Assembly: GCA_038063455.1 (NCBI GenBank)
Contig: JBBTVB010000002.1
Location: forward strand, 129,296-193,295
DNA length: 64,000 bases
Reading direction: 5' to 3'
From: Patescibacteria group bacterium
GTDB taxonomy: Bacteria; Patescibacteriota; Patescibacteriia; PEXW01
The notes beneath the pieces were generated by a model that saw nothing but the letters and a program-made list of their open reading frames with translations, was not told where the DNA came from and searched no databases. The translations under genes and the position numbers were made by a program. Shown piece after piece: positions 2,192-24,454 of this stretch (positions are counted from its first letter, which is position 1; each line of letters starts with the position of its first letter).

Positions 2192-3268
2192 TTAGCCGCG
2201 GCTTACAATGTTGCGAAGACTAGCAGGGTCCAGCGCCACGGCTTCGGCATCTTGCGGCAGGATATCCCCGACGCGGACGAGTTCAGCCAAGGTTCGGTCT
2301 AACGATTCCGTACCATCTTGCCGGCTGGTCTGCATAGCATTGGCTAGCTGCAAGAACTGCCCATCCCGAATAACTGCGCGCGTGGCGGCCGCCGGGGTAA
2401 AGACCTCGGCTACTAATACGCGGCCGCCGCCAACCCGGGGCACTAAACGTAGGTTAAGCACACCCTGGAGCGCATCAGCCAATTCTTTACGAACCGTAGG
2501 CTGGTCGGCTGGGGAAAAGGCGTTCACCAAGCGCTCGATCGCCTGCACTGCCGAGTCTGCAGTGATGGTGGCAATAATAAGCTTGCCGCTGTGCAAAGCG
2601 TGCACGCAGGCACGCATGTCCTCCGTGCTATCCAGCTCGCCAATAGCAATAACGTCTACATCTTCCATATCCGTCAGCGTGAGCGCATGGCCAATAGTCG
2701 GCACGTCCGCACCCACCTCCCGCTGTTCAATCACGCTCTTCTGGCTCACGAATAAAAATTCAATGGGTTGCTCAATGCTAAGAATGTGTGCCACGCGCTC
2801 CAGGTTAATAAGGTTGACCAGCGAGGCTAGCACGGTGGTGCGACCCGCGCCGTACGGGCCAGAAATAAGCACTAACCCGTGCGGCGCACGAGCAAATGCC
2901 TCGGCACTCTTGGGCAGGCCGAGCTCGCGCGGGGTCGGGATGGCATCGGGAATGTAGCGTAGGTCCAAAGAGAGTGTCCCCTTCTGGTACATGGCGGTCA
3001 AACGGAAGCGCAATTTGCCGTCCACCGCCACGGTGGCGTGCACATCACGCTCGCGTTCGAGCGTCGCTTTCTGGCTTTCGGAAAGAATGCCATCAACAAA
3101 GCCCCGCACCACGTCCGCACTCACCACCGGCTCTTGGTCCAGCGGCACCAGCTTGCCGTCAACGCGGAGGAAGGGCGGGTTGCCCGGCACAAGGTGAACA
3201 TCAGACGCGCGGTACTGCGTGGCCTGGGTAAGTATTCGAGTGATAGCTTGCTGCTCGGAGGTTAACAT
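2192..3268 (-). CDS. pilT: PilT-family hexameric ATPase homologue with degenerate catalytic motifs
   Basis: 358 aa with PilT-like length and layout. Walker A is GPYGAGRTT (Lys replaced by Arg). The Asp box is IEQPIEF, Walker B is DVIAIGELD, and the His box is SGKLIIATITADSA (both His lost). An AIRNLIRE-like ATRAVIRDGQ motif is present. Confidence 0.8.
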   Translation of the reverse strand: MLTSEQQAITRILTQATQYRASDVHLVPGNPPFLRVDGKLVPLDQEPVVSADVVRGFVDGILSESQKATLERERDVHATVAVDGKLRFRLTAMYQKGTLSLDLRYIPDAIPTPRELGLPKSAEAFARAPHGLVLISGPYGAGRTTVLASLVNLINLERVAHILSIEQPIEFLFVSQKSVIEQREVGADVPTIGHALTLTDMEDVDVIAIGELDSTEDMRACVHALHSGKLIIATITADSAVQAIERLVNAFSPADQPTVRKELADALQGVLNLRLVPRVGGGRVLVAEVFTPAAATRAVIRDGQFLQLANAMQTSRQDGTESLDRTLAELVRVGDILPQDAEAVALDPASLRNIVSRG

Positions 3269-3284
3269 CGTGTAGGGTTCAAGT

Positions 3285-3377
3285 TTATTCTAACGAAGGC
3301 ACCCTGTACCGGAGCGTAGCGACTGGTACGGGGTGGGTGAGTATTCGAGTAATAGCTTGTTGTTCAGAAGTCAGCAT
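3285..3377 (-). other. 30-codon upstream ORF or gene remnant duplicating PilT codons 1-14
   Basis: Minus strand reads ATGCTGACTTCTGAACAACAAGCTATTACTCGAATACTCACC..., which translates to MLTSEQQAITRILT HPVPVATLRYRVPSLE*. The first 14 aa are identical to PilT (ATGTTAACCTCCGAGCAGCAAGCTATCACTCGAATACTTACC at 3268-3227), with 9 nt differences that are all synonymous. Confidence 0.5.
3300..3335. repeat. Hairpin repeat, copy 1 (ccctgYacc-ggaRcgtagcgact-ggtRcRggg)
   Basis: Stem 3302-3310 pairs with 3325-3333 around a 14-nt loop ggagcgtagcgact. A second copy at 24243-24278 has the same loop and compensatory stem changes. Confidence 0.6.
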
Positions 3378-3393
3378 TGAAAATCTAAAGTGG

Positions 3394-3837
3394 TTACTTC
3401 ATTAAACGTCGGACCTTGGCCACAACTTCGGACGGCATGAAGTGCGCTTTAATAAGGTAGTCGAGGGCGCCCAGGTCTAAGCCTTTTTGTACGTCTTCTT
3501 TTTGGCCCAAATTGGTGAGTAAAATAACTGGTACATTTTTGGTGAGTGCATTGGCTTTTACTTCTTTAAGCACGTCGAAACCGCTCTTCTTGGGCAGCAC
3601 AATATCCAGCAGCATCAGGTCGGGCACTTCACGTAGGGCCAGGGTCACGGCCTGCTCGCCATCGCTGGCCAGCACGACATGAAAACCTTCAAGTTCCAAC
3701 TTCGTTACGTACATGCCAGCCAAAAACGTATCGTCTTCAACCAGCAAAATAGTGTGTTTTTTTTCAGTCGCGGGTTTTGCGGCTGCGGCGGGAACTTTCT
3801 TCTGGAGTGGTCGCTTCGGTGTAGGCATAGGGGGCAA
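3394..3837 (-). CDS. Single-domain response regulator (CheY/PilH-like REC) with a basic N-terminal tail
   Basis: 147 aa. Motifs: ILLVEDD, phospho-acceptor context LLDIVLP, LLTNLG, DYLIK. No output domain. Located between pilB and the pilT-like gene. Confidence 0.85.
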   Translation of the reverse strand: MPPMPTPKRPLQKKVPAAAAKPATEKKHTILLVEDDTFLAGMYVTKLELEGFHVVLASDGEQAVTLALREVPDLMLLDIVLPKKSGFDVLKEVKANALTKNVPVILLTNLGQKEDVQKGLDLGALDYLIKAHFMPSEVVAKVRRLMK

Positions 3838-5607: not shown

Positions 5608-6770
5608 AGCGGCACGAAAGGGTTTGCCCGGCCGGCTTTCCCGAGTTCCTGCCCGCTGGACTGGTTGCCCGCCCGGTCAACGGCGATGACGGTGTAGTAC
5701 AAAGTTTTTCCAGGGATCAGGTTTTTGTTCTCGATGCACAGCTCTTTGCTGCAGTCGCCGGTCGTGGTGGCAGCCTGATCGAGCGTGGCCACATCTTGCA
5801 CATTTTTCTGGCCCACCAGCGTGCCCAGCAACAGCGCCGCATCAGACCGAAACACGTCGTAGCGCACCACGTCGGCCGACGGTGAGGGCACCCAGGACAC
5901 CCGGACCAGATTGTTCTGGCCGTCGTAGGCGGTGGTCACGAAATCTGGCGCGTCGGGCATAGTGGCGTCGGTGCTGGTAATTTTTCCAGTCCAGGTTAGG
6001 CCGCCAATAGAGTCGGTCAGCCACACGACGGTGTAAAAATGCATGTCCGCTTTTCCACCGGCGTCATTAAAATTGGTAGTGCTGGCGTCCAGCGCTGCGA
6101 CCCGGCGACCGAGCAGGCCGGCAGCATCAGAGCGGTACACCTCAACTTTTTTGCCTTCCGCAGCACCAGGGGTTACCCACTGCAAGCGCACGCCGGCGGC
6201 ATCTGCCGCTTCGATGGTGAGCCCACCGCCGCTGGCCCCCACCTTGGCCGCAATTTGTGCCGATTGCGCGGCGCCTACCTGCTTCACGTAGTTAATGACA
6301 TAGGTCGCTGCCTGGCCGTCCACCGCCTGGGTGTAGAGGTACGACGTTGCGGTCGCGGGCAGCGTCACCAGGTTCTCATTGGTATCGCCCACCGCGCGGC
6401 TAACCCGGACCAGCGTGGCATCAAGTTTTGCCGGCGGTTTCCAGGTAAACAGAATTGCGCCGCCAGTTTGCACGTTAAAAGCTTCAACCGTGGGGGCGGC
6501 CACTTCGGTAGCCGGAATCTCGGCCGTCGCTTGGGTAATAAGCTCGGTGCCGCCTTTGGGCGAGAGCGCGTAGAACCGCGGGTCACGAAAAATTGCCTGC
6601 CCAAAATCTTTCGCTACGGTTTTGGTCTGCGTGGGGGTGCTGCCGGTGCTGGCCCCGCCGCTGCTCGACATGTTCAAGTACAGCACGTACCCGCCCAAGA
6701 GCAGGATGGGAATGCCGCCGAAGAGCAGGATTTTTTTAAGACGTTCGGGAGTTTGCTTCTGGACGAGCAT
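5604..6770 (-). CDS. Membrane-anchored protein with three FN3-like repeats (pilus-operon accessory)
   Basis: 388 aa with an N-terminal TM. Three modules of the type xLxWxxP...V(R/E)VYRS...YTV (AILFTWKPP..., GVRLQWVTP...VEVYRSD..., LVRVSWVPS...YDVFRSD...YYTVIAVD). Its stop overlaps the pilB start (ATGA at 5604-5607). Confidence 0.6.
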   Translation of the reverse strand: MLVQKQTPERLKKILLFGGIPILLLGGYVLYLNMSSSGGASTGSTPTQTKTVAKDFGQAIFRDPRFYALSPKGGTELITQATAEIPATEVAAPTVEAFNVQTGGAILFTWKPPAKLDATLVRVSRAVGDTNENLVTLPATATSYLYTQAVDGQAATYVINYVKQVGAAQSAQIAAKVGASGGGLTIEAADAAGVRLQWVTPGAAEGKKVEVYRSDAAGLLGRRVAALDASTTNFNDAGGKADMHFYTVVWLTDSIGGLTWTGKITSTDATMPDAPDFVTTAYDGQNNLVRVSWVPSPSADVVRYDVFRSDAALLLGTLVGQKNVQDVATLDQAATTTGDCSKELCIENKNLIPGKTLYYTVIAVDRAGNQSSGQELGKAGRANPFVPL

Positions 6771-6775
6771 GGCGG

Positions 6776-7363
6776 TTAGCTTTCAAAATAGTACGAGCGG
6801 AAACTAAAGCTGTAGCTATTTGGCTGGCTGGAAGATGAGGGTGAGTGAGAAATGGAAGTGAGGTCGAGCAAGGGGGCTTGGCGGGACACGACGTTCAAAA
6901 AATTCTTGAGTCCGTTGTAGTCGAGTGCGCCGCTGAGGATAACCGAGACGGTTACCGTGCGCAGGCCACCGACGCTGGCTGAGCCAGCCGCCGAGCCGCC
7001 ATCCGACACTGCGACCGAGGACAGGTCCATATTCGCATCCTTGGCAAAAGCTTGCATCTGCCGAAAAATCCCGGGCACATCGCGGCCCCGCGGCACAATG
7101 GCATTCAGGCGGGCAATATCGTCCGGCGAGACCGCATTCACCTCGTCACGCAAGCCGCGTAGCTGCTCCAGGTAGCTTTGCTGGGCCGCCAGCTGGGCTT
7201 GCTTCTGGGTATAGTCCAACCCGCCCAGCGCACGCACTTCTTTCACCCGCGGGGCGACGAACAAGAACCCGCCGATAATCAGGACCAGGGCGGAAACGCC
7301 TATGCCGAACACCAGGACATGTCGTTCGACGAAGTGTGTGAGTGAGGTAAGGGAGATGCGCAT
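6776..7363 (-). CDS. pilO: PilO-like pilus alignment protein
   Basis: 195 aa: N-terminal TM, a coiled-coil segment, then an alpha/beta domain. Position directly after pilN. Confidence 0.6.
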   Translation of the reverse strand: MRISLTSLTHFVERHVLVFGIGVSALVLIIGGFLFVAPRVKEVRALGGLDYTQKQAQLAAQQSYLEQLRGLRDEVNAVSPDDIARLNAIVPRGRDVPGIFRQMQAFAKDANMDLSSVAVSDGGSAAGSASVGGLRTVTVSVILSGALDYNGLKNFLNVVSRQAPLLDLTSISHSPSSSSQPNSYSFSFRSYYFES

Positions 7364-7364
7364 A

Positions 7365-8654
7365 CTAGCGGCTATGGTAGAAAACTTTGGGGTTCACCCG
7401 CAGGGACACGCTAAACGACACTTGTGATTTTGGGGCAGCTGCAGCTTGCCCCGGGGGGGTGTCGGTGGCTGCCGCGCTGCTCACTTTGGTGGCGCTGAGA
7501 ATAGTGGCTTGCAAAATGAAGTCGGTGGCTTTTTGGTAGGTGAGCAACTGCTTGCCAACTTCGTCAAACGTTGTGGCCGTGGCCGACATGCTCACGCTCC
7601 CGGCTACATCCACGCTTATATTACCGTAGCTCACCGTTGGCAGCGTGACCCCTTCAATCTGGGTGAAAAATTGATCCCAGTACACGTGCTGGTCCAGCGC
7701 CTTGGTAATGTCGGCTGTTCGCTGGCGCAGCACGCTGGCTTGCTGCAGCGGGCCACTTTCCAGCACAGACACCTGCTGCCCCAGTGCTGCAATTTCGGTG
7801 TCGAGGTCGGCAATCTTCGCATCCAGTGACCGTTGGTAGATGCCCAGGCCAATGGTGGTGCCCGCAACCAGCACAACCGCAGCCGCGACGATGATAGCGG
7901 CAATCAACCGATTCCTTGACGGACCTTCGGGCTGGTACTCTTGGGGCACCAAGTTGACGTTCAAGCCGGCGCCGAGAATTGGCGCGGCCTCAGAAAGTCG
8001 GTTTTGCGTTTTACCCGTTGCGGCTGGCGGGGTAAAGCCGAACGATGGAGGCGGCGGTGGCACAACCTGAGCTGGCTTCGTGCTCCAGGCAGGGGTTGGA
8101 GCCGCCGGGACTCCGGCTGGGCTTGGTGGTGCCCAGGCTGGCCGTCGCACGGGTGGCGGCGGCACAGGGGGCAAGCTCGCTGACGGCACCGACGTTACTG
8201 GTGAAGCTAGCTTTGGTGCTGGGGGCGGTGGCAGTGGTGTTGCACTTGCGTGCACTGGAGGTGTTGCCGCTATCGGGGCTGCTGGAACTTTGGGTTTTGC
8301 CTGCCCGAACATCTTGCGCAAAAAACCTTTTGCTTGCGGCGGAGCGGGCGGTGGTGCCAAACGGTCTGGCATGGTTTGCACGCGCGTCACCGGCCCAGAG
8401 GCAATGGTTGGTTTAGGTGCCGGGTACTGGACGGCTGGGTCTGACGCGGCAACGGCAGGTTTCGTCTTTGGCAAGGCAGTGGGCTTGCGCTTGAAAAGGG
8501 TCTTAAAAAATTCCAGCACCCCGCCAATGCGGTCTACCCGTTCCTGAAAAATCCGATCCTGCGGCGTGCTCATTTCCACCACATCTTTCGGCGCTTTTAC
8601 TTCGCGCTTCAGTTGCTTGTCTTTTTCCGGGAGTAGGTTGATATTCGATTCCAT
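7365..8654 (-). CDS. pilN: PilN-like protein with a Pro-rich N-terminal extension of about 220 aa and two INLLP-type motifs
   Basis: 429 aa. NINLLPE at residues 4-10 and LNVNLVPQE at residues 231-239, about 12 aa before the single TM (residues 250-273). A PilN-like periplasmic domain follows. Confidence 0.75.
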   Translation of the reverse strand: MESNINLLPEKDKQLKREVKAPKDVVEMSTPQDRIFQERVDRIGGVLEFFKTLFKRKPTALPKTKPAVAASDPAVQYPAPKPTIASGPVTRVQTMPDRLAPPPAPPQAKGFLRKMFGQAKPKVPAAPIAATPPVHASATPLPPPPAPKLASPVTSVPSASLPPVPPPPVRRPAWAPPSPAGVPAAPTPAWSTKPAQVVPPPPPSFGFTPPAATGKTQNRLSEAAPILGAGLNVNLVPQEYQPEGPSRNRLIAAIIVAAAVVLVAGTTIGLGIYQRSLDAKIADLDTEIAALGQQVSVLESGPLQQASVLRQRTADITKALDQHVYWDQFFTQIEGVTLPTVSYGNISVDVAGSVSMSATATTFDEVGKQLLTYQKATDFILQATILSATKVSSAAATDTPPGQAAAAPKSQVSFSVSLRVNPKVFYHSR

Positions 8655-17005: not shown

Positions 17006-17902
17006 ATGACTACCTACACCCAAATTGCTAGCAACAAGCGCCGCAGCATCATTCTGGTTGCTGTTTTTATAATCATCATCGTCGGCTTGGCCTATGTGTT
17101 TAGTAAAGCCTACGAAGCCGGCCCGGGCGCTGTGGGGCTTGCCATACTCTTCTCTATCGGCATGACGCTGGTGGGCTACTACAGCGGCGACAAAGTGGCG
17201 TTGTGGACAGCGGGCGCCGTGGAAATAACCAAGGAACAAAACCCGTACCTGGTGCGGATGGTGGAAAACCTTTCGATTACTGCCGGGCTGCCCATGCCGC
17301 GCGTGCACGTAATGCAGGACGAAATGATAAACGCCTTTGCCACCGGCCGCGACCCCAAGCATGCATCTATTGCCGTGACTACCGGCGCGCTAGAAAAACT
17401 GGAGAACGAAGAATTGGAAGGTGTGCTGGCGCACGAACTCTCGCACGTCGGGAACTACGACGTACGCTTCATGACGCTCGTGGCCGTACTGGTCGGCATC
17501 ATTAGCCTGCTCGCCCACTGGTTTATCCGCTTCAACTTTTTTGGCGGCCGTCGCTCTAATAGCGACCGAGGTGGGAATGCTGCCGGCATTCTTATGATCG
17601 TTGGTATTGTACTCTCTATTCTTGCGCCCATTGCCGCTACGCTCATCCAGCTGGCCGTCTCTCGCAAACGAGAATTCCTGGCCGACGCCAGCGCCGCGCA
17701 ACTCACGCGCTTCCCCGAAGGGCTGGCCCGCGCTTTGGAAAAAATTGCAGCGCAAGACGGCAAGCTCCGCACTGCCAGCAATGCCACCGCCCACCTGTTT
17801 ATTGCGAGCCCCTTTGGTGCGGTGCATGGCCATGGCTTGAGCAAAATGTTCTCCACTCACCCGCCGGTGGAAGAGCGCATTAGTCTTTTAAGGAAAATGT
17901 AG
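17006..17902 (+). CDS. htpX: HtpX-like M48 zinc metalloprotease
   Basis: 298 aa with four TM segments, an HELSHV zinc motif, and a C-terminal STHPPVEERI. Confidence 0.9.
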   Translation: MTTYTQIASNKRRSIILVAVFIIIIVGLAYVFSKAYEAGPGAVGLAILFSIGMTLVGYYSGDKVALWTAGAVEITKEQNPYLVRMVENLSITAGLPMPRVHVMQDEMINAFATGRDPKHASIAVTTGALEKLENEELEGVLAHELSHVGNYDVRFMTLVAVLVGIISLLAHWFIRFNFFGGRRSNSDRGGNAAGILMIVGIVLSILAPIAATLIQLAVSRKREFLADASAAQLTRFPEGLARALEKIAAQDGKLRTASNATAHLFIASPFGAVHGHGLSKMFSTHPPVEERISLLRKM

Positions 17903-17974: not shown

Positions 17975-18000
17975 GGTAGTGTGGGGGCGCCTAACGTTGG

Positions 18001-18039
18001 CCCAGCACCACTTTTCATAAACAGAAAAGTGGTGCTGGG
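18001..18039. repeat. Perfect 15-bp-stem inverted repeat abutting a -35 box
   Basis: cccagcaccactttt-cataaacag-aaaagtggtgctggg, immediately followed by TTGACA at 18040. Confidence 0.6.
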
Positions 18040-18068
18040 TTGACAAAACCGCTTTTTTACGCTATACT
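18040..18068 (+). promoter_or_regulatory. Consensus-like promoter of the candidate small RNA or clpC leader
   Basis: TTGACA (18040-45), a 17-nt spacer, TATACT (18063-68). Confidence 0.55.
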
Positions 18069-24081: not shown

Positions 24082-24158
24082 GCGCTCGTAGCTCAGCTGG
24101 ATAGAGCGCAAGCTTGCGGAGCTTGAGGTCGCAGGTTCAACTCCTGCCGAGCGCACCA
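24082..24158 (+). tRNA. tRNA-Arg with anticodon GCG, CCA encoded
   Basis: Manual fold: acceptor GCGCTCG/CGAGCGC, D-arm GCTC/GAGC, anticodon stem CAAGC/GCTTG, loop TTGCGGA, T-loop TTCAACT. Confidence 0.85.
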
Positions 24159-24242
24159 TGAACCACTCACGTTGTTCGAGTTCATGGCGAGCCACGTCTT
24201 AAAACACGTAGCGCCCGCCAAACCAATAAGGAAAGTGGTTCA

Positions 24243-24278
24243 TGCCCTGAACCGGAACGTAGCGACTGGTTCAGGGCA
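24243..24278. repeat. Hairpin repeat, copy 2
   Basis: tgccctgaacc-ggaacgtagcgact-ggttcagggca. The loop matches copy 1 at 3300-3335 apart from one R position. Confidence 0.6.
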
Positions 24279-24365
24279 CTTTACCCCACGAACGCGTGCT
24301 CCTCACTGCGTTCGTCCGCGCCACGTTCGCGGGGACCCCAGGGTGTATCATCATCATTTACATTT

Positions 24366-24454
24366 GGTGGGATGGCGGAGTGGTCTATCGCGCTGGTCTT
24401 GAAAACCAGAAGGGTGAATAGCCCTCGGAAGTTCGAATCTTCCTCCCACCGCCA
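24366..24454 (+). tRNA. tRNA-Ser (anticodon TGA), CCA encoded
   Basis: Manual fold: acceptor GGTGGGA/TCCCACC, anticodon loop CTTGAAA, long variable arm, T-loop TTCGAAT. Confidence 0.9.

Follow-up and report, generated by a model that had tools for sequence, protein, structure and literature searches.

What does a second start of pilT, placed upstream of the gene and differing from its first codons only at synonymous sites, stand for in the genome of a Patescibacteria group bacterium: a peptide under selection, the remains of a lost gene, or the trace of a recombination event? The window (the whole stretch of DNA analysed, 64,000 nucleotides long) contains pilT at 2192..3268 on the minus strand, which encodes a PilT-like T2SSE ATPase of 358 amino acids (Pfam T2SSE). 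Codons 1-14 of this gene plus 2 nt, at 3225..3268 on the minus strand, form the functional copy (or L copy), which is continuous with pilT, and the same codons plus 2 nt are found again at 3334..3377 on the minus strand as an orphan upstream copy (R copy). The direct repeats are 44 nt each, with a start-to-start distance of 109 nt and 65 nt between the copies, and the orphan adjoins a hairpin directly (0-2 nt overlap), which is separated from the functional pilT ATG by a spacer (3269..3298, minus strand).

Reading on through the hairpin, the orphan forms a 30-codon upstream ORF (uORF) at 3285..3377 on the minus strand, which begins with the ATG at 3377, encodes MLTSEQQAITRILTHPVPVATLRYRVPSLE and stops within the spacer at a TAA (3285-3287), 16 nt before the pilT ATG at 3268. 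An equal gap of 16 nt lies between the orphan ATG and the stop of the response-regulator gene found directly upstream (3394..3828, minus strand). The sequence-only reading of this DNA, which had described the upstream copy as running into a hairpin repeat and its frame as ending after 30 codons, 16 nt before pilT, was accurate on both points, the hairpin being a 13-bp stem-loop at 3299-3336. An extended duplication was considered because a TAA stands 16 nt before the ATG in both copies, in which case the spacer would be a diverged 3' end of the response regulator plus its 16-nt intergenic region, and the alignment is too weak to claim this.

The two copies differ at eight positions in seven codons, and all eight differences are both synonymous and transitions. 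The earlier reading had placed the duplicate correctly, on the minus strand, and had recognized the synonymy, although it counted nine differences instead of eight. When eight random transitions were placed on the functional copy in 20,000 trials, none of the trials kept the peptide unchanged (P<5e-5). The logic of that reading, by which purely neutral decay would not spare all the non-synonymous sites, is sound. A diversity-generating retroelement was discarded as a source of these differences, given that the C/T and A/G transitions run in both directions and are not adenine-specific. Programmed translational bypass, as in T4 gene 60 and the mitochondrial byps, where matched take-off and landing codons are combined with a stop directly behind the take-off codon inside a hairpin, was also rejected: ACC is shared by the two sites, yet the take-off codon is not followed by a stop, and bypass is not needed, since the 109-nt gap contains a complete second start.

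An assembly artefact is ruled out by three independent assemblies in which the sequence of the duplicate locus is identical (GCA_964364675.1, an NCBI MAG; ERR3858126, from Logan; and ERZ1292631, from ENA), and a k-mer chimera is unlikely because the longest exact match between the orphan and the functional copy has just 11 nt, which is too short. No comparable short-range duplicate was found elsewhere in the 64-kb window. The spacer contains no Shine-Dalgarno-like motif and has no counterpart in the relatives, and a promoter and terminator scan around the insert returned no terminator and a single weak promoter-like site, located on the plus strand, antisense to pilT. The fold of the whole region as RNA is no more stable than that of shuffled sequences (z = 0.2).

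In a comparison with related type IV pilus loci, which the earlier reading had proposed as a check, both the duplicate and the hairpin are missing from all four of them (L124, L123, L008 and L004), each of which has a single pilT start preceded by an unrelated intergenic region of 69-197 nt. Even in the closest relative, L124, PilT is 93% identical in amino acids, yet neither the duplicate nor the hairpin is present. Aligned with L124, a block at 2220..3385 (minus strand) reaches only 77-78% nucleotide identity and 46% identity at third codon positions, whereas the flanking pilB, response-regulator and pilC genes reach 87-90% and 72-74%, respectively, and the response regulator is 89% identical right to its stop. 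The 5' edge of this low-identity pilT block falls at the duplicate and the hairpin. The third-position identity between the two pilT copies (about 50%) fits the value observed for pilT between the window and L124, and not that of the flanking genes.

Over codons 1-11, the orphan has three differences from L124 and the functional copy six, while the two copies differ from one another at seven. All codon states of the orphan are also seen in one relative or another, and the functional copy has five private synonymous states (TTA, GAG, CAG, ATC). The GC content at third positions (GC3) of pilT in the window matches that of its neighbour pilC (0.663 vs 0.665), as it does in the outgroups, and it is L124 that is the odd one (0.526 in pilT vs 0.603 in pilC), so the mosaic block possibly arose from a swap in the L124 lineage. 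The tract imported in the window may be just about 109 nt long. As to which lineage swapped its pilT, GC3 and the pairwise identities point both ways.

The hairpin at 3299..3336 (plus strand) belongs to a family, here called type A, which was defined by the invariant core CCGGAGCGTAGCGACTGG and a covarying stem of at least 7 bp that closes it. The copy upstream of pilT has a 13-bp stem around this core and scores 55.4 bits with the covariance model; as RNA, its plus strand, antisense to pilT, is the more stable one (-25.1 vs -16.1 kcal/mol). A second locus of the family was found in the window between tRNA-Arg and tRNA-Ser (24153..24279, plus strand), where a hairpin of another type, type B, starts in the CCA of tRNA-Arg (24153-24190) and is followed by a linker and then by a type-A hairpin (24242-24279; 54.7 bits), which shows a compensatory stem change relative to the copy at 3299-3336.

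About 37 copies of the type-A hairpin were found, mostly in Patescibacteria and often paired with a type-B hairpin, and they are located in gene ends and also inside a variable region of the 23S rRNA (L024, L079). The family has a conserved hairpin of 36 nt with an invariant core of 18 nt and a stem that covaries, given that 92.9% of the cells are paired, 19 cells are compensatory and five stem positions have compensatory changes, which was equalled by none of 500 shuffles. No match was obtained for either hairpin of the window in Rfam 15 at the gathering threshold, and permissive thresholds returned chance-level matches alone (E>1); a full-text search of the literature for the core sequence returned no paper. 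In viral contigs there was a single weak match with a poor stem, and on this basis no link to phages is drawn.

The architecture observed at pilT recurs at other gene ends. In 11 of the roughly 37 hairpins, an intact gene is followed by a spacer of 15-102 nt, the hairpin and, 0-2 nt after it, an orphan gene end, with the intact gene on the same side of the hairpin in all 11. Orphans are found at lepA, ileS, a serine hydrolase gene, glyA, sodA, an MGMT-like gene and the tRNA-His, -Lys, -Ser and -Gly genes, and ileS and glyA are among the weaker cases, with significance at the protein and positional level only. The repeated gene ends have 12-47 nt, are 67-100% identical and have their limits at start codons, stop codons or the ends of tRNAs. 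The amino acid is kept in 29 of the 37 differing codons across the cases, and the swaps that preserve an amino acid or a stop include AGA/CGT, TTA/CTG, TTA/CTC, CTT/TTA, TTG/CTT and TAA/TAG. In both of the long 5' cases, the similarity ends exactly at the ATG and peaks beside the hairpin, and this is expected if the non-coding flanks stem from diverged lineages. The 3' halves of tRNAs are duplicated at L046 and L040, and L040 also has a case in which the hairpin alone (37 nt) was inserted without a target duplication.

The only recurrent ORF in the vicinity of the hairpins, in an all-against-all clustering of the ORFs within 4 kb on each side of 35 of them, is a small GIY-YIG found at three loci (L088, L094 and L112), where GIY-YIG-only ORFs of about 90 amino acids start 10-14 nt past the hairpin within tRNA clusters. 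No integrase, transposase or reverse transcriptase is recurrent in these same regions, and no partner copy was detected at kilobase distances, so nothing indicates a full-size element. At the pilT site there is no GIY-YIG ORF, and this small type is also missing from the 64-kb window.

Since the same scar is found beside the same conserved hairpin at other genes of other Patescibacteria, a recurrence indicative of a mobile or recombinogenic element not described so far, the upstream copy of the pilT start is most likely a recombination scar and not a selected leader peptide, and the functional copy probably arrived on a segment bounded by the hairpin. Such a segment would have carried the conserved hairpin at its end and, 30 nt beyond it, the start of a diverged pilT allele, and would have been fused to the resident pilT directly behind codon 14, with a seamless join by homology on the side of the gene and a non-homologous join on the side of the hairpin. 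At a minimum, it would comprise 109 nt (hairpin, spacer and codons 1-14), and it may reach through the whole gene. The resident codons 1-14 would have been left stranded upstream, still joined to the resident upstream region, and the orphan is accordingly best read, from its codons, as the displaced resident start of pilT. Before their union, each copy would have been a working pilT start in a separate lineage under purifying selection, which would account for the differences being synonymous only, a pattern that would thus be inherited and not the product of selection on the peptide.

We infer the direction of the transfer, the extent of the imported tract and the agent, for which the candidates would be the homology-facilitated illegitimate recombination (HFIR) of transformed DNA or a homing-like event mediated by a structure-specific nuclease. 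The third of the explanations advanced in the sequence-only reading, a small mobile insertion that carried a replacement 5' end, is the one supported, given the same hairpin at similar junctions in other genes and genomes. A donor-like allele, that is, the same pilT with the hairpin upstream and no orphan, was not found. The counts over 33-42 nt are small, and the position of the junction exactly at the foot of the hairpin lacks an explanation; these points, like the missing donor allele, recombinase and partner copies, speak against an imported allele. All of the orphans have 47 nt or less, which suggests a mechanistic constraint, and plain illegitimate recombination predicts none. As a side effect of the scar, ribosomes may be relayed from the orphan start through the 30-codon ORF to pilT by termination and reinitiation, which the arrangement of starts and stops would permit because the orphan ATG keeps the geometry of the operon (a stop, 16 nt and an ATG) and the uORF ends 16 nt before the pilT ATG.

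The other readings of this locus have to account for the same features. A duplication in situ, either through transposition of the hairpin with a target-site duplication of about 44 bp or through replication slippage at the hairpin, with later divergence in place, would produce the geometry observed, which formally matches an insert between the two halves of a target duplication, and it is consistent with the duplicate lengths of 41-47 nt in three cases and with the spacing of 109 nt shared by pilT and lepA. The functional copy would then have changed synonymously, perhaps in adapting to its new 5' context, while the orphan was fixed for the relay of ribosomes, and the private changes are indeed all on the functional copy and concentrated in codons 2-6, the region that affects initiation, with the uORF stop 16 nt from the pilT ATG. 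Nevertheless, copies identical at birth would require all eight changes to have hit the roughly 13 sites of the functional copy that are synonymous, with the 42 free sites of the orphan left untouched, the probability of which is estimated at roughly 1e-5, or else third positions more constrained in the uORF than in pilT itself. The mostly synonymous pattern, with swaps between stop codons, is also present at the 3' ends of glyA, sodA and the MGMT-like gene, where a relay is irrelevant, the hairpin at L040 was inserted with no target duplication, and a symmetric event does not predict an intact gene that is always found on one side (11 of 11), so that we regard this origin as unlikely. A transposon target-site duplication as such, for which the flanking repeats should have a fixed length, full identity at the time of insertion and no relation to gene boundaries, was rejected, given that the repeats vary in length and identity and end at gene boundaries, and given the case of L040.

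Selection on the upstream frame, by which either the 14-residue PilT-like peptide or the 30-codon ORF would control the translation of pilT (as a leader peptide, by attenuation or by coupling), would fit an intact frame with an ATG start and no amino-acid change relative to PilT, equal gaps after the uORF and after the upstream gene, and the three other 5' cases in which the orphan ORF ends at the real ATG or within a few nucleotides of it. The position of the uORF stop has no statistical signal, however, because the tail formed by the hairpin and the spacer has stops near the ATG in all three frames, and a coupling device would not require the amino-acid sequence to be preserved. Similar duplicates affect unrelated genes, 3' ends and tRNAs as well, and the absence of the duplicate from all four related loci, including the one with the 93% identical PilT, an outcome that the earlier reading had itself named as a refutation, contradicts the selected peptide, which had been the first explanation of the earlier reading and is now very improbable. 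The second of those explanations, a tandem pilT/pilU paralogue of which, after deletion of its body, the first 14 codons remain as a relic, would equally explain the synonymous differences as those of a once-functional gene, and type IV pilus loci often contain PilT/PilU pairs. Against this, no relative has tandem pilT genes at the pilT position, the N-termini of PilU normally differ from those of PilT, and the orphan ends exactly at the hairpin, as is the case elsewhere at the single-copy lepA, ileS, glyA and sodA. This explanation is correct only in the loose sense that the orphan is a relic of another pilT allele, and with no sign of a tandem pair, a lost paralogue is hardly to be expected.

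A recombination scar of this kind has parallels among known systems. When e14 or phage 21 is integrated in the icd gene of E. coli, as with the integrases that target tRNAs, an intact gene is likewise rebuilt with the incoming gene end, and the displaced icdC fragment at e14 differs from icd mostly at synonymous sites (PMC13626634). The displaced resident end likewise persists beyond the insert as an orphan direct repeat, which is also found at pilT, as are the mainly synonymous differences (8/8 at pilT; 29/37 codons across the cases), and the duplicated 3' halves at L046 and L040 resemble the products of tRNA-targeting integrases. Unlike these systems, the insert described here has only 65 nt (109 nt with the gene end) with no prophage, and no integrase gene is found inside it or consistently near the hairpins. 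A fixed attP/attB pair cannot explain the hairpin, since the same hairpin accompanies many different target genes.

In natural transformation, HFIR likewise yields one homologous and one non-homologous junction, the latter at a microhomology of 3-10 bp with the donor, and it has been documented for donor DNA diverged by 15-23% (PMC6382021). At pilT, the junction on the gene side is seamless and that on the hairpin side has only a 2-nt overlap (TG/CA), and the host has genes for a type IV pilus and for competence-type machinery. We know of no HFIR joints at a specific conserved hairpin, nor of any restricted to a terminal stretch of a gene of 47 nt or less. Intronless homing offers another likeness, given that SegB of phage T4, a free-standing GIY-YIG located in a tRNA gene cluster, promotes the non-reciprocal transfer of a segment and its flanks from a diverged genome (PMC2330249). 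The GIY-YIG ORFs after the hairpin at L088, L094 and L112 recall this arrangement, whereas the pilT site has none, and the role of a nuclease here is only a candidate one. Classical homing, to our knowledge, leaves no orphan duplicate.

Short hairpin repeats in intergenic DNA, in variable regions of the rRNA and even in coding regions are formed by REP/BIME, the Rickettsia palindromic elements, the Correia elements and, in mitochondria, GC clusters, double-hairpin elements and 'byps'. The type-A hairpin resembles these small palindromic mobile elements in its copies within the 23S rRNA variable region and at gene ends, and differs from them in that the 18 nt at its apex show no variation across phyla, whereas its stem covaries, and in a copy number per genome that appears low (two in 64 kb). 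As far as we know, diverged gene-end duplicates have not been described for these families. The likeness to regulatory uORFs and translational coupling lies in a short ORF that terminates 16 nt upstream of the main start in a compact operon, but the pilT uORF is not conserved among the relatives, and its peptide would copy the N-terminus of PilT for historical and not functional reasons.

More tentatively, and with greater doubt than attaches to the scar itself, the type-A hairpin, often with type B, could be the business end of undescribed and very small mobile elements of the Patescibacteria and neighbouring phyla. Such elements would spread between genomes on conserved gene ends (tRNAs, rRNA, lepA, ileS, glyA, sodA and pilT), with the gene end serving as the homology anchor for invasion and the hairpin as the other junction, perhaps cut by the stand-alone GIY-YIG nucleases occasionally found after it. 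With each invasion, the end of the host gene would be exchanged and the old end left behind as an orphan, and serial invasions would build arrays, such as that found after tRNA-Gly in L049.

For the annotation of this genome, the 30-codon ORF should not be named as a gene or a leader peptide, given that a signature of synonymous differences only, which is usually taken as proof of selection, here marks the junction between two alleles. The presence of the hairpin at such junctions in many genomes and housekeeping genes suggests either an undescribed mechanism of recombination or mobility, or a so far unrecognized function of a structured element. The Patescibacteria have tiny genomes and depend on the uptake of DNA, and very little is known of how they exchange genes. 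Should the hairpin prove to be the active agent, it would provide a sequence handle for tracing allele replacement in uncultured bacteria, as well as a testable substrate for the small GIY-YIG proteins that are abundant in the Patescibacteria.

On the minus strand of the window, a 30-codon ORF whose ATG lies at 3377 (MLTSEQQAITRILTHPVPVATLRYRVPSLE*) has as its residues 1-14 the N-terminus of a 358-aa PilT-like ATPase (Pfam T2SSE; start 3268, minus). A direct repeat of 44 nt, with a spacing of 109 nt, places an orphan copy of the pilT start (3334-3377) upstream of the functional one (3225-3268). The sequence-only reading of a duplicate altered only at synonymous sites holds in all but its count, as there are eight differing positions rather than nine, all eight of them synonymous transitions. 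When eight transitions were placed randomly on the functional copy, the peptide remained unchanged in none of 20,000 trials (P<5e-5). The ORF stops at 3285-3287, 16 nt before the pilT ATG, and the gap between the stop of the upstream response-regulator gene and the ATG of the ORF is also 16 nt. The sequence of the locus is identical in three separate assemblies (NCBI GCA_964364675.1, Logan ERR3858126, and ENA ERZ1292631) of a Patescibacteria MAG from Hainich groundwater.

The orphan copy and the spacer are separated by a hairpin of 36-38 nt with a 13-bp stem (3299-3336), here called type A, of which a second copy, with a compensatory T-A to A-T stem change, is found at 24242-24279, between tRNA-Arg and tRNA-Ser. 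A scan of the GTDB species genomes and JGI metagenomes with its 18-nt core (CCGGARCGTAGCGACTGG) matched 41 and 70 loci, respectively; about half of the matches are chance occurrences with no stem, and in about 35 non-redundant loci the core is closed by a covarying stem of at least 7 bp, the variants of which include CCCTGTA/TACAGGG, CCATGCA/TGCATGG, and CCCTAAA/TTTAGGG. Most of them belong to Patescibacteria, Peribacteria, and Desantisbacteria, and two alphaproteobacteria are also represented. Across 20 sequences, 92.9% of the cells are paired and 19 cells have compensatory changes, which was equaled in none of 500 shuffles. The G-T wobbles favour the strand reading CCGGAGCG..., which in the window is antisense to pilT (-25.1 vs -16.1 kcal/mol).

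The type-A hairpin is often preceded by a partner, type B, and the pair sits after tRNA genes, the CCA of which is sometimes part of the stem, and within a variable region of the 23S rRNA. In the window, three consecutive hairpins (24153-24340) lie between tRNA-Arg (24082-24158) and tRNA-Ser (24366-24454), these being a type B whose stem begins with the CCA of tRNA-Arg (CCATGAAC...GTTCATGG), a type A, and a third, CCCCACGAACG...CGTTCGCGGGG. In two Moranbacteria-like lineages (L024, about 2560-2680, and L079, of which L082, L106, L108, and L111 are duplicates), the 23S rRNA gene carries type B, a linker, and type A, in sense orientation, as an insertion in a variable helix, directly upstream of the conserved ...ACAGTGYCTGGTGGGTAGTTT segment. 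The linker often includes CACCAGTCG (L028, about 5830-5850, and the equivalent positions of L031 and L120), whose complementarity to CGACTGGTG, a part of the 3' half of type A, would permit either an alternative pairing or a pseudoknot. A 43-nt hairpin of the window at 17998-18042 (GGCCCAGCACC...GGTGCTGGGTT), following an ORF that ends at 17902, has the stem consensus of the family with another loop, and scores weakly (17 bits) against the type-A model. The identical core, with a CCCTCCC/GGGAGGG stem, is also found just downstream of genes in alphaproteobacterial MAG contigs (L037, 541-558; L042, 1602-1619), and this apical sequence is thus common to very distant phyla.

Once the loci had been oriented by the strand of the core, and the genes identified using Pfam and ARAGORN, 11 of about 37 hairpins were found to be followed, after 0-2 nt, by a copy of the sequence that ends 15-102 nt before the hairpin, with the left copy always being the one continuous with the intact gene. 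Gene starts on the opposite strand are involved in pilT (44 nt, identical peptides), lepA (L034; 44-47 nt, intact MSNCIRNFCIIAHI vs orphan MSNFIRNFCIIAHI), a serine hydrolase (L090; 27-33 nt, MKQRVYIIH vs MKQRVFIIH), ileS (L029; 17-20 nt, MFDSV vs MFDPV), and the 5' end of tRNA-Ser (L103; 14 nt), while gene ends on the same strand are those of glyA (L051; RYPLYPKLNYI* vs KYPLYPGLKYI*), sodA (L059; NILKLI* vs NVLKLI*), an MGMT-like gene (L018; VDLSKYLWK vs VDLEKYLWK), tRNA-His (L046; 41 nt, one mismatch), tRNA-Lys (L040), and tRNA-Gly (L049). The lepA copies, spaced by 109 nt as in pilT, differ at 10 nt, including AGA/CGT, with one amino-acid change. Over all the protein cases, the amino acid is kept in 29 of 37 differing codons, including two-step synonymous changes and stop-for-stop swaps, and in the 5' cases the similarity peaks beside the hairpin and stops exactly at the ATG. 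No orphan of the hairpin family exceeds 47 nt, and the foot of the hairpin coincides exactly with the junction. An orphan tRNA half in L040 is interrupted by just the hairpin (37 nt), with no duplication. Downstream of tRNA-Gly(gcc) in L049 (1438-2230) there are five orphan repeats of the 12 nt that end the gene (TTACCCGCTCCA), and directly before each of them stands a strong hairpin; at least three types of hairpin are represented. The L049 array is itself partly duplicated, in units of 198/205 and 77 nt. No Rfam family matches the hairpin, and a full-text literature search with the core sequence returned no paper; neither the family nor its polar link to diverged duplicates of gene ends appears to have been described.

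The possibility that the ORF is a conserved regulatory element, raised from the sequence alone, is not supported, and by the criterion set out there it is refuted by four related type IV pilus loci sharing the gene order pilB, response regulator, pilT, pilC (PilT amino-acid identities of 93% in L124, 87% in L123, 87% in L008, or 86% by direct count, and 85% in L004). All four have a single pilT start encoding an identical or almost identical N-terminus, their intergenic regions (69-197 nt) are mutually unrelated, and the type-A hairpin is found in none of them. The first 14 pilT codons differ almost only synonymously among these orthologues, and the peptide is therefore strongly conserved as part of PilT. 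The PilT Walker A (residues 136-144, about 2845-2870) reads GPYGAGRTT, with arginine in place of the lysine of the canonical GxxGxGK(S/T), as it does in the 93% identical relative in the alignment. The operon genes are 6-19 nt apart without Shine-Dalgarno-like motifs. The orphan retains the original stop-16 nt-ATG context, with its ORF ending 16 nt ahead of the real ATG, so that expression may be affected by a relay of ribosomes to pilT through termination and reinitiation. The orphan ORFs of lepA, the hydrolase gene, and ileS also terminate at the real ATG or no more than a few nt from it. In the pilT tail, each of the three frames has a stop close to the ATG, which deprives the position of this stop of statistical weight, and a relay cannot explain why the amino acids are conserved.

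Such close adherence to the genetic code rules out that the differences accumulated in a dead fragment; they must date from a time when each of the two sequences was a functional gene end. Had the pilT copies been identical at birth, the functional copy would have had to take all eight changes, at ~13 synonymous sites, with the 42 free sites of the orphan taking none, for which we estimate ~1e-5. The orphan, the hairpin, and the functional start are probably a recombination scar, in which the orphan would be the displaced resident start, and the earlier suggestion of a mobile insertion bearing a replacement 5' end is supported. The resident gene start contains a segment that is bounded by the hairpin and carries a gene start of foreign type, the gene-side junction of this segment being homologous and its hairpin-side junction non-homologous. 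The event may have been homology-facilitated illegitimate recombination (HFIR) of transformed DNA, a process documented with donor DNA at 15-23% divergence (PMC6382021), or a homing-like repair, as T4 SegB and other free-standing GIY-YIG endonucleases transfer segments of tRNA regions along with their flanks (PMC2330249). The closest documented outcome is that of e14 in icd, where the differences between the displaced icdC fragment and icd are mainly synonymous (PMC13626634), as between the pilT copies. GIY-YIG-only ORFs of 62 to about 90 aa, with the catalytic domain only, follow type-A hairpins by 10-14 nt, on the same strand and within tRNA gene clusters (L088, 1730-1999; L112, about 1237-1494; L094, 68-256). 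The L094 copy is internally truncated, and further copies occur elsewhere in L028, L040, and L117, beside tRNA genes in L028 and L117. No ORF of this type was found in the window, nor any other recurrent mobility gene near the hairpins, nor a full-size element.

In codons 1-11, three positions separate the orphan from L124, the closest relative; six separate the functional copy from L124, and seven separate it from the orphan. Five synonymous states are private to the functional copy and none to the orphan, every state of which occurs in the relatives. Third-position identity between the copies (about 50%) equals the level of the window and L124 pilT alleles (46%), not that of the flanks (72-74%). 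In a sliding comparison with L124, a sharp mosaic is observed, with nucleotide identities of 87-89% in pilB plus the response regulator, 77-78% in pilT, and 90% in pilC, and with the edges of the pilT block at the duplicate and within the last ~25 nt of the gene. As the GC3 of the window pilT fits its neighbours and that of the L124 pilT does not, the whole-gene swap may have taken place in the L124 lineage, and the window itself may have received no more than 109 nt. The pilN/pilO-like genes are about 75% identical at the nucleotide level between the window (5640-8500 and 1-960 compared) and L124, with flanks of 88%, and the pilin genes downstream of pilC are sharply different or replaced. 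Given the sharp pilT block, with its edges at the duplicate and near the gene end, members of this clade exchange pilT alleles as whole units. With the pilN/pilO-like and pilin differences added, the type IV pilus locus as a whole is a mosaic produced by recombination.
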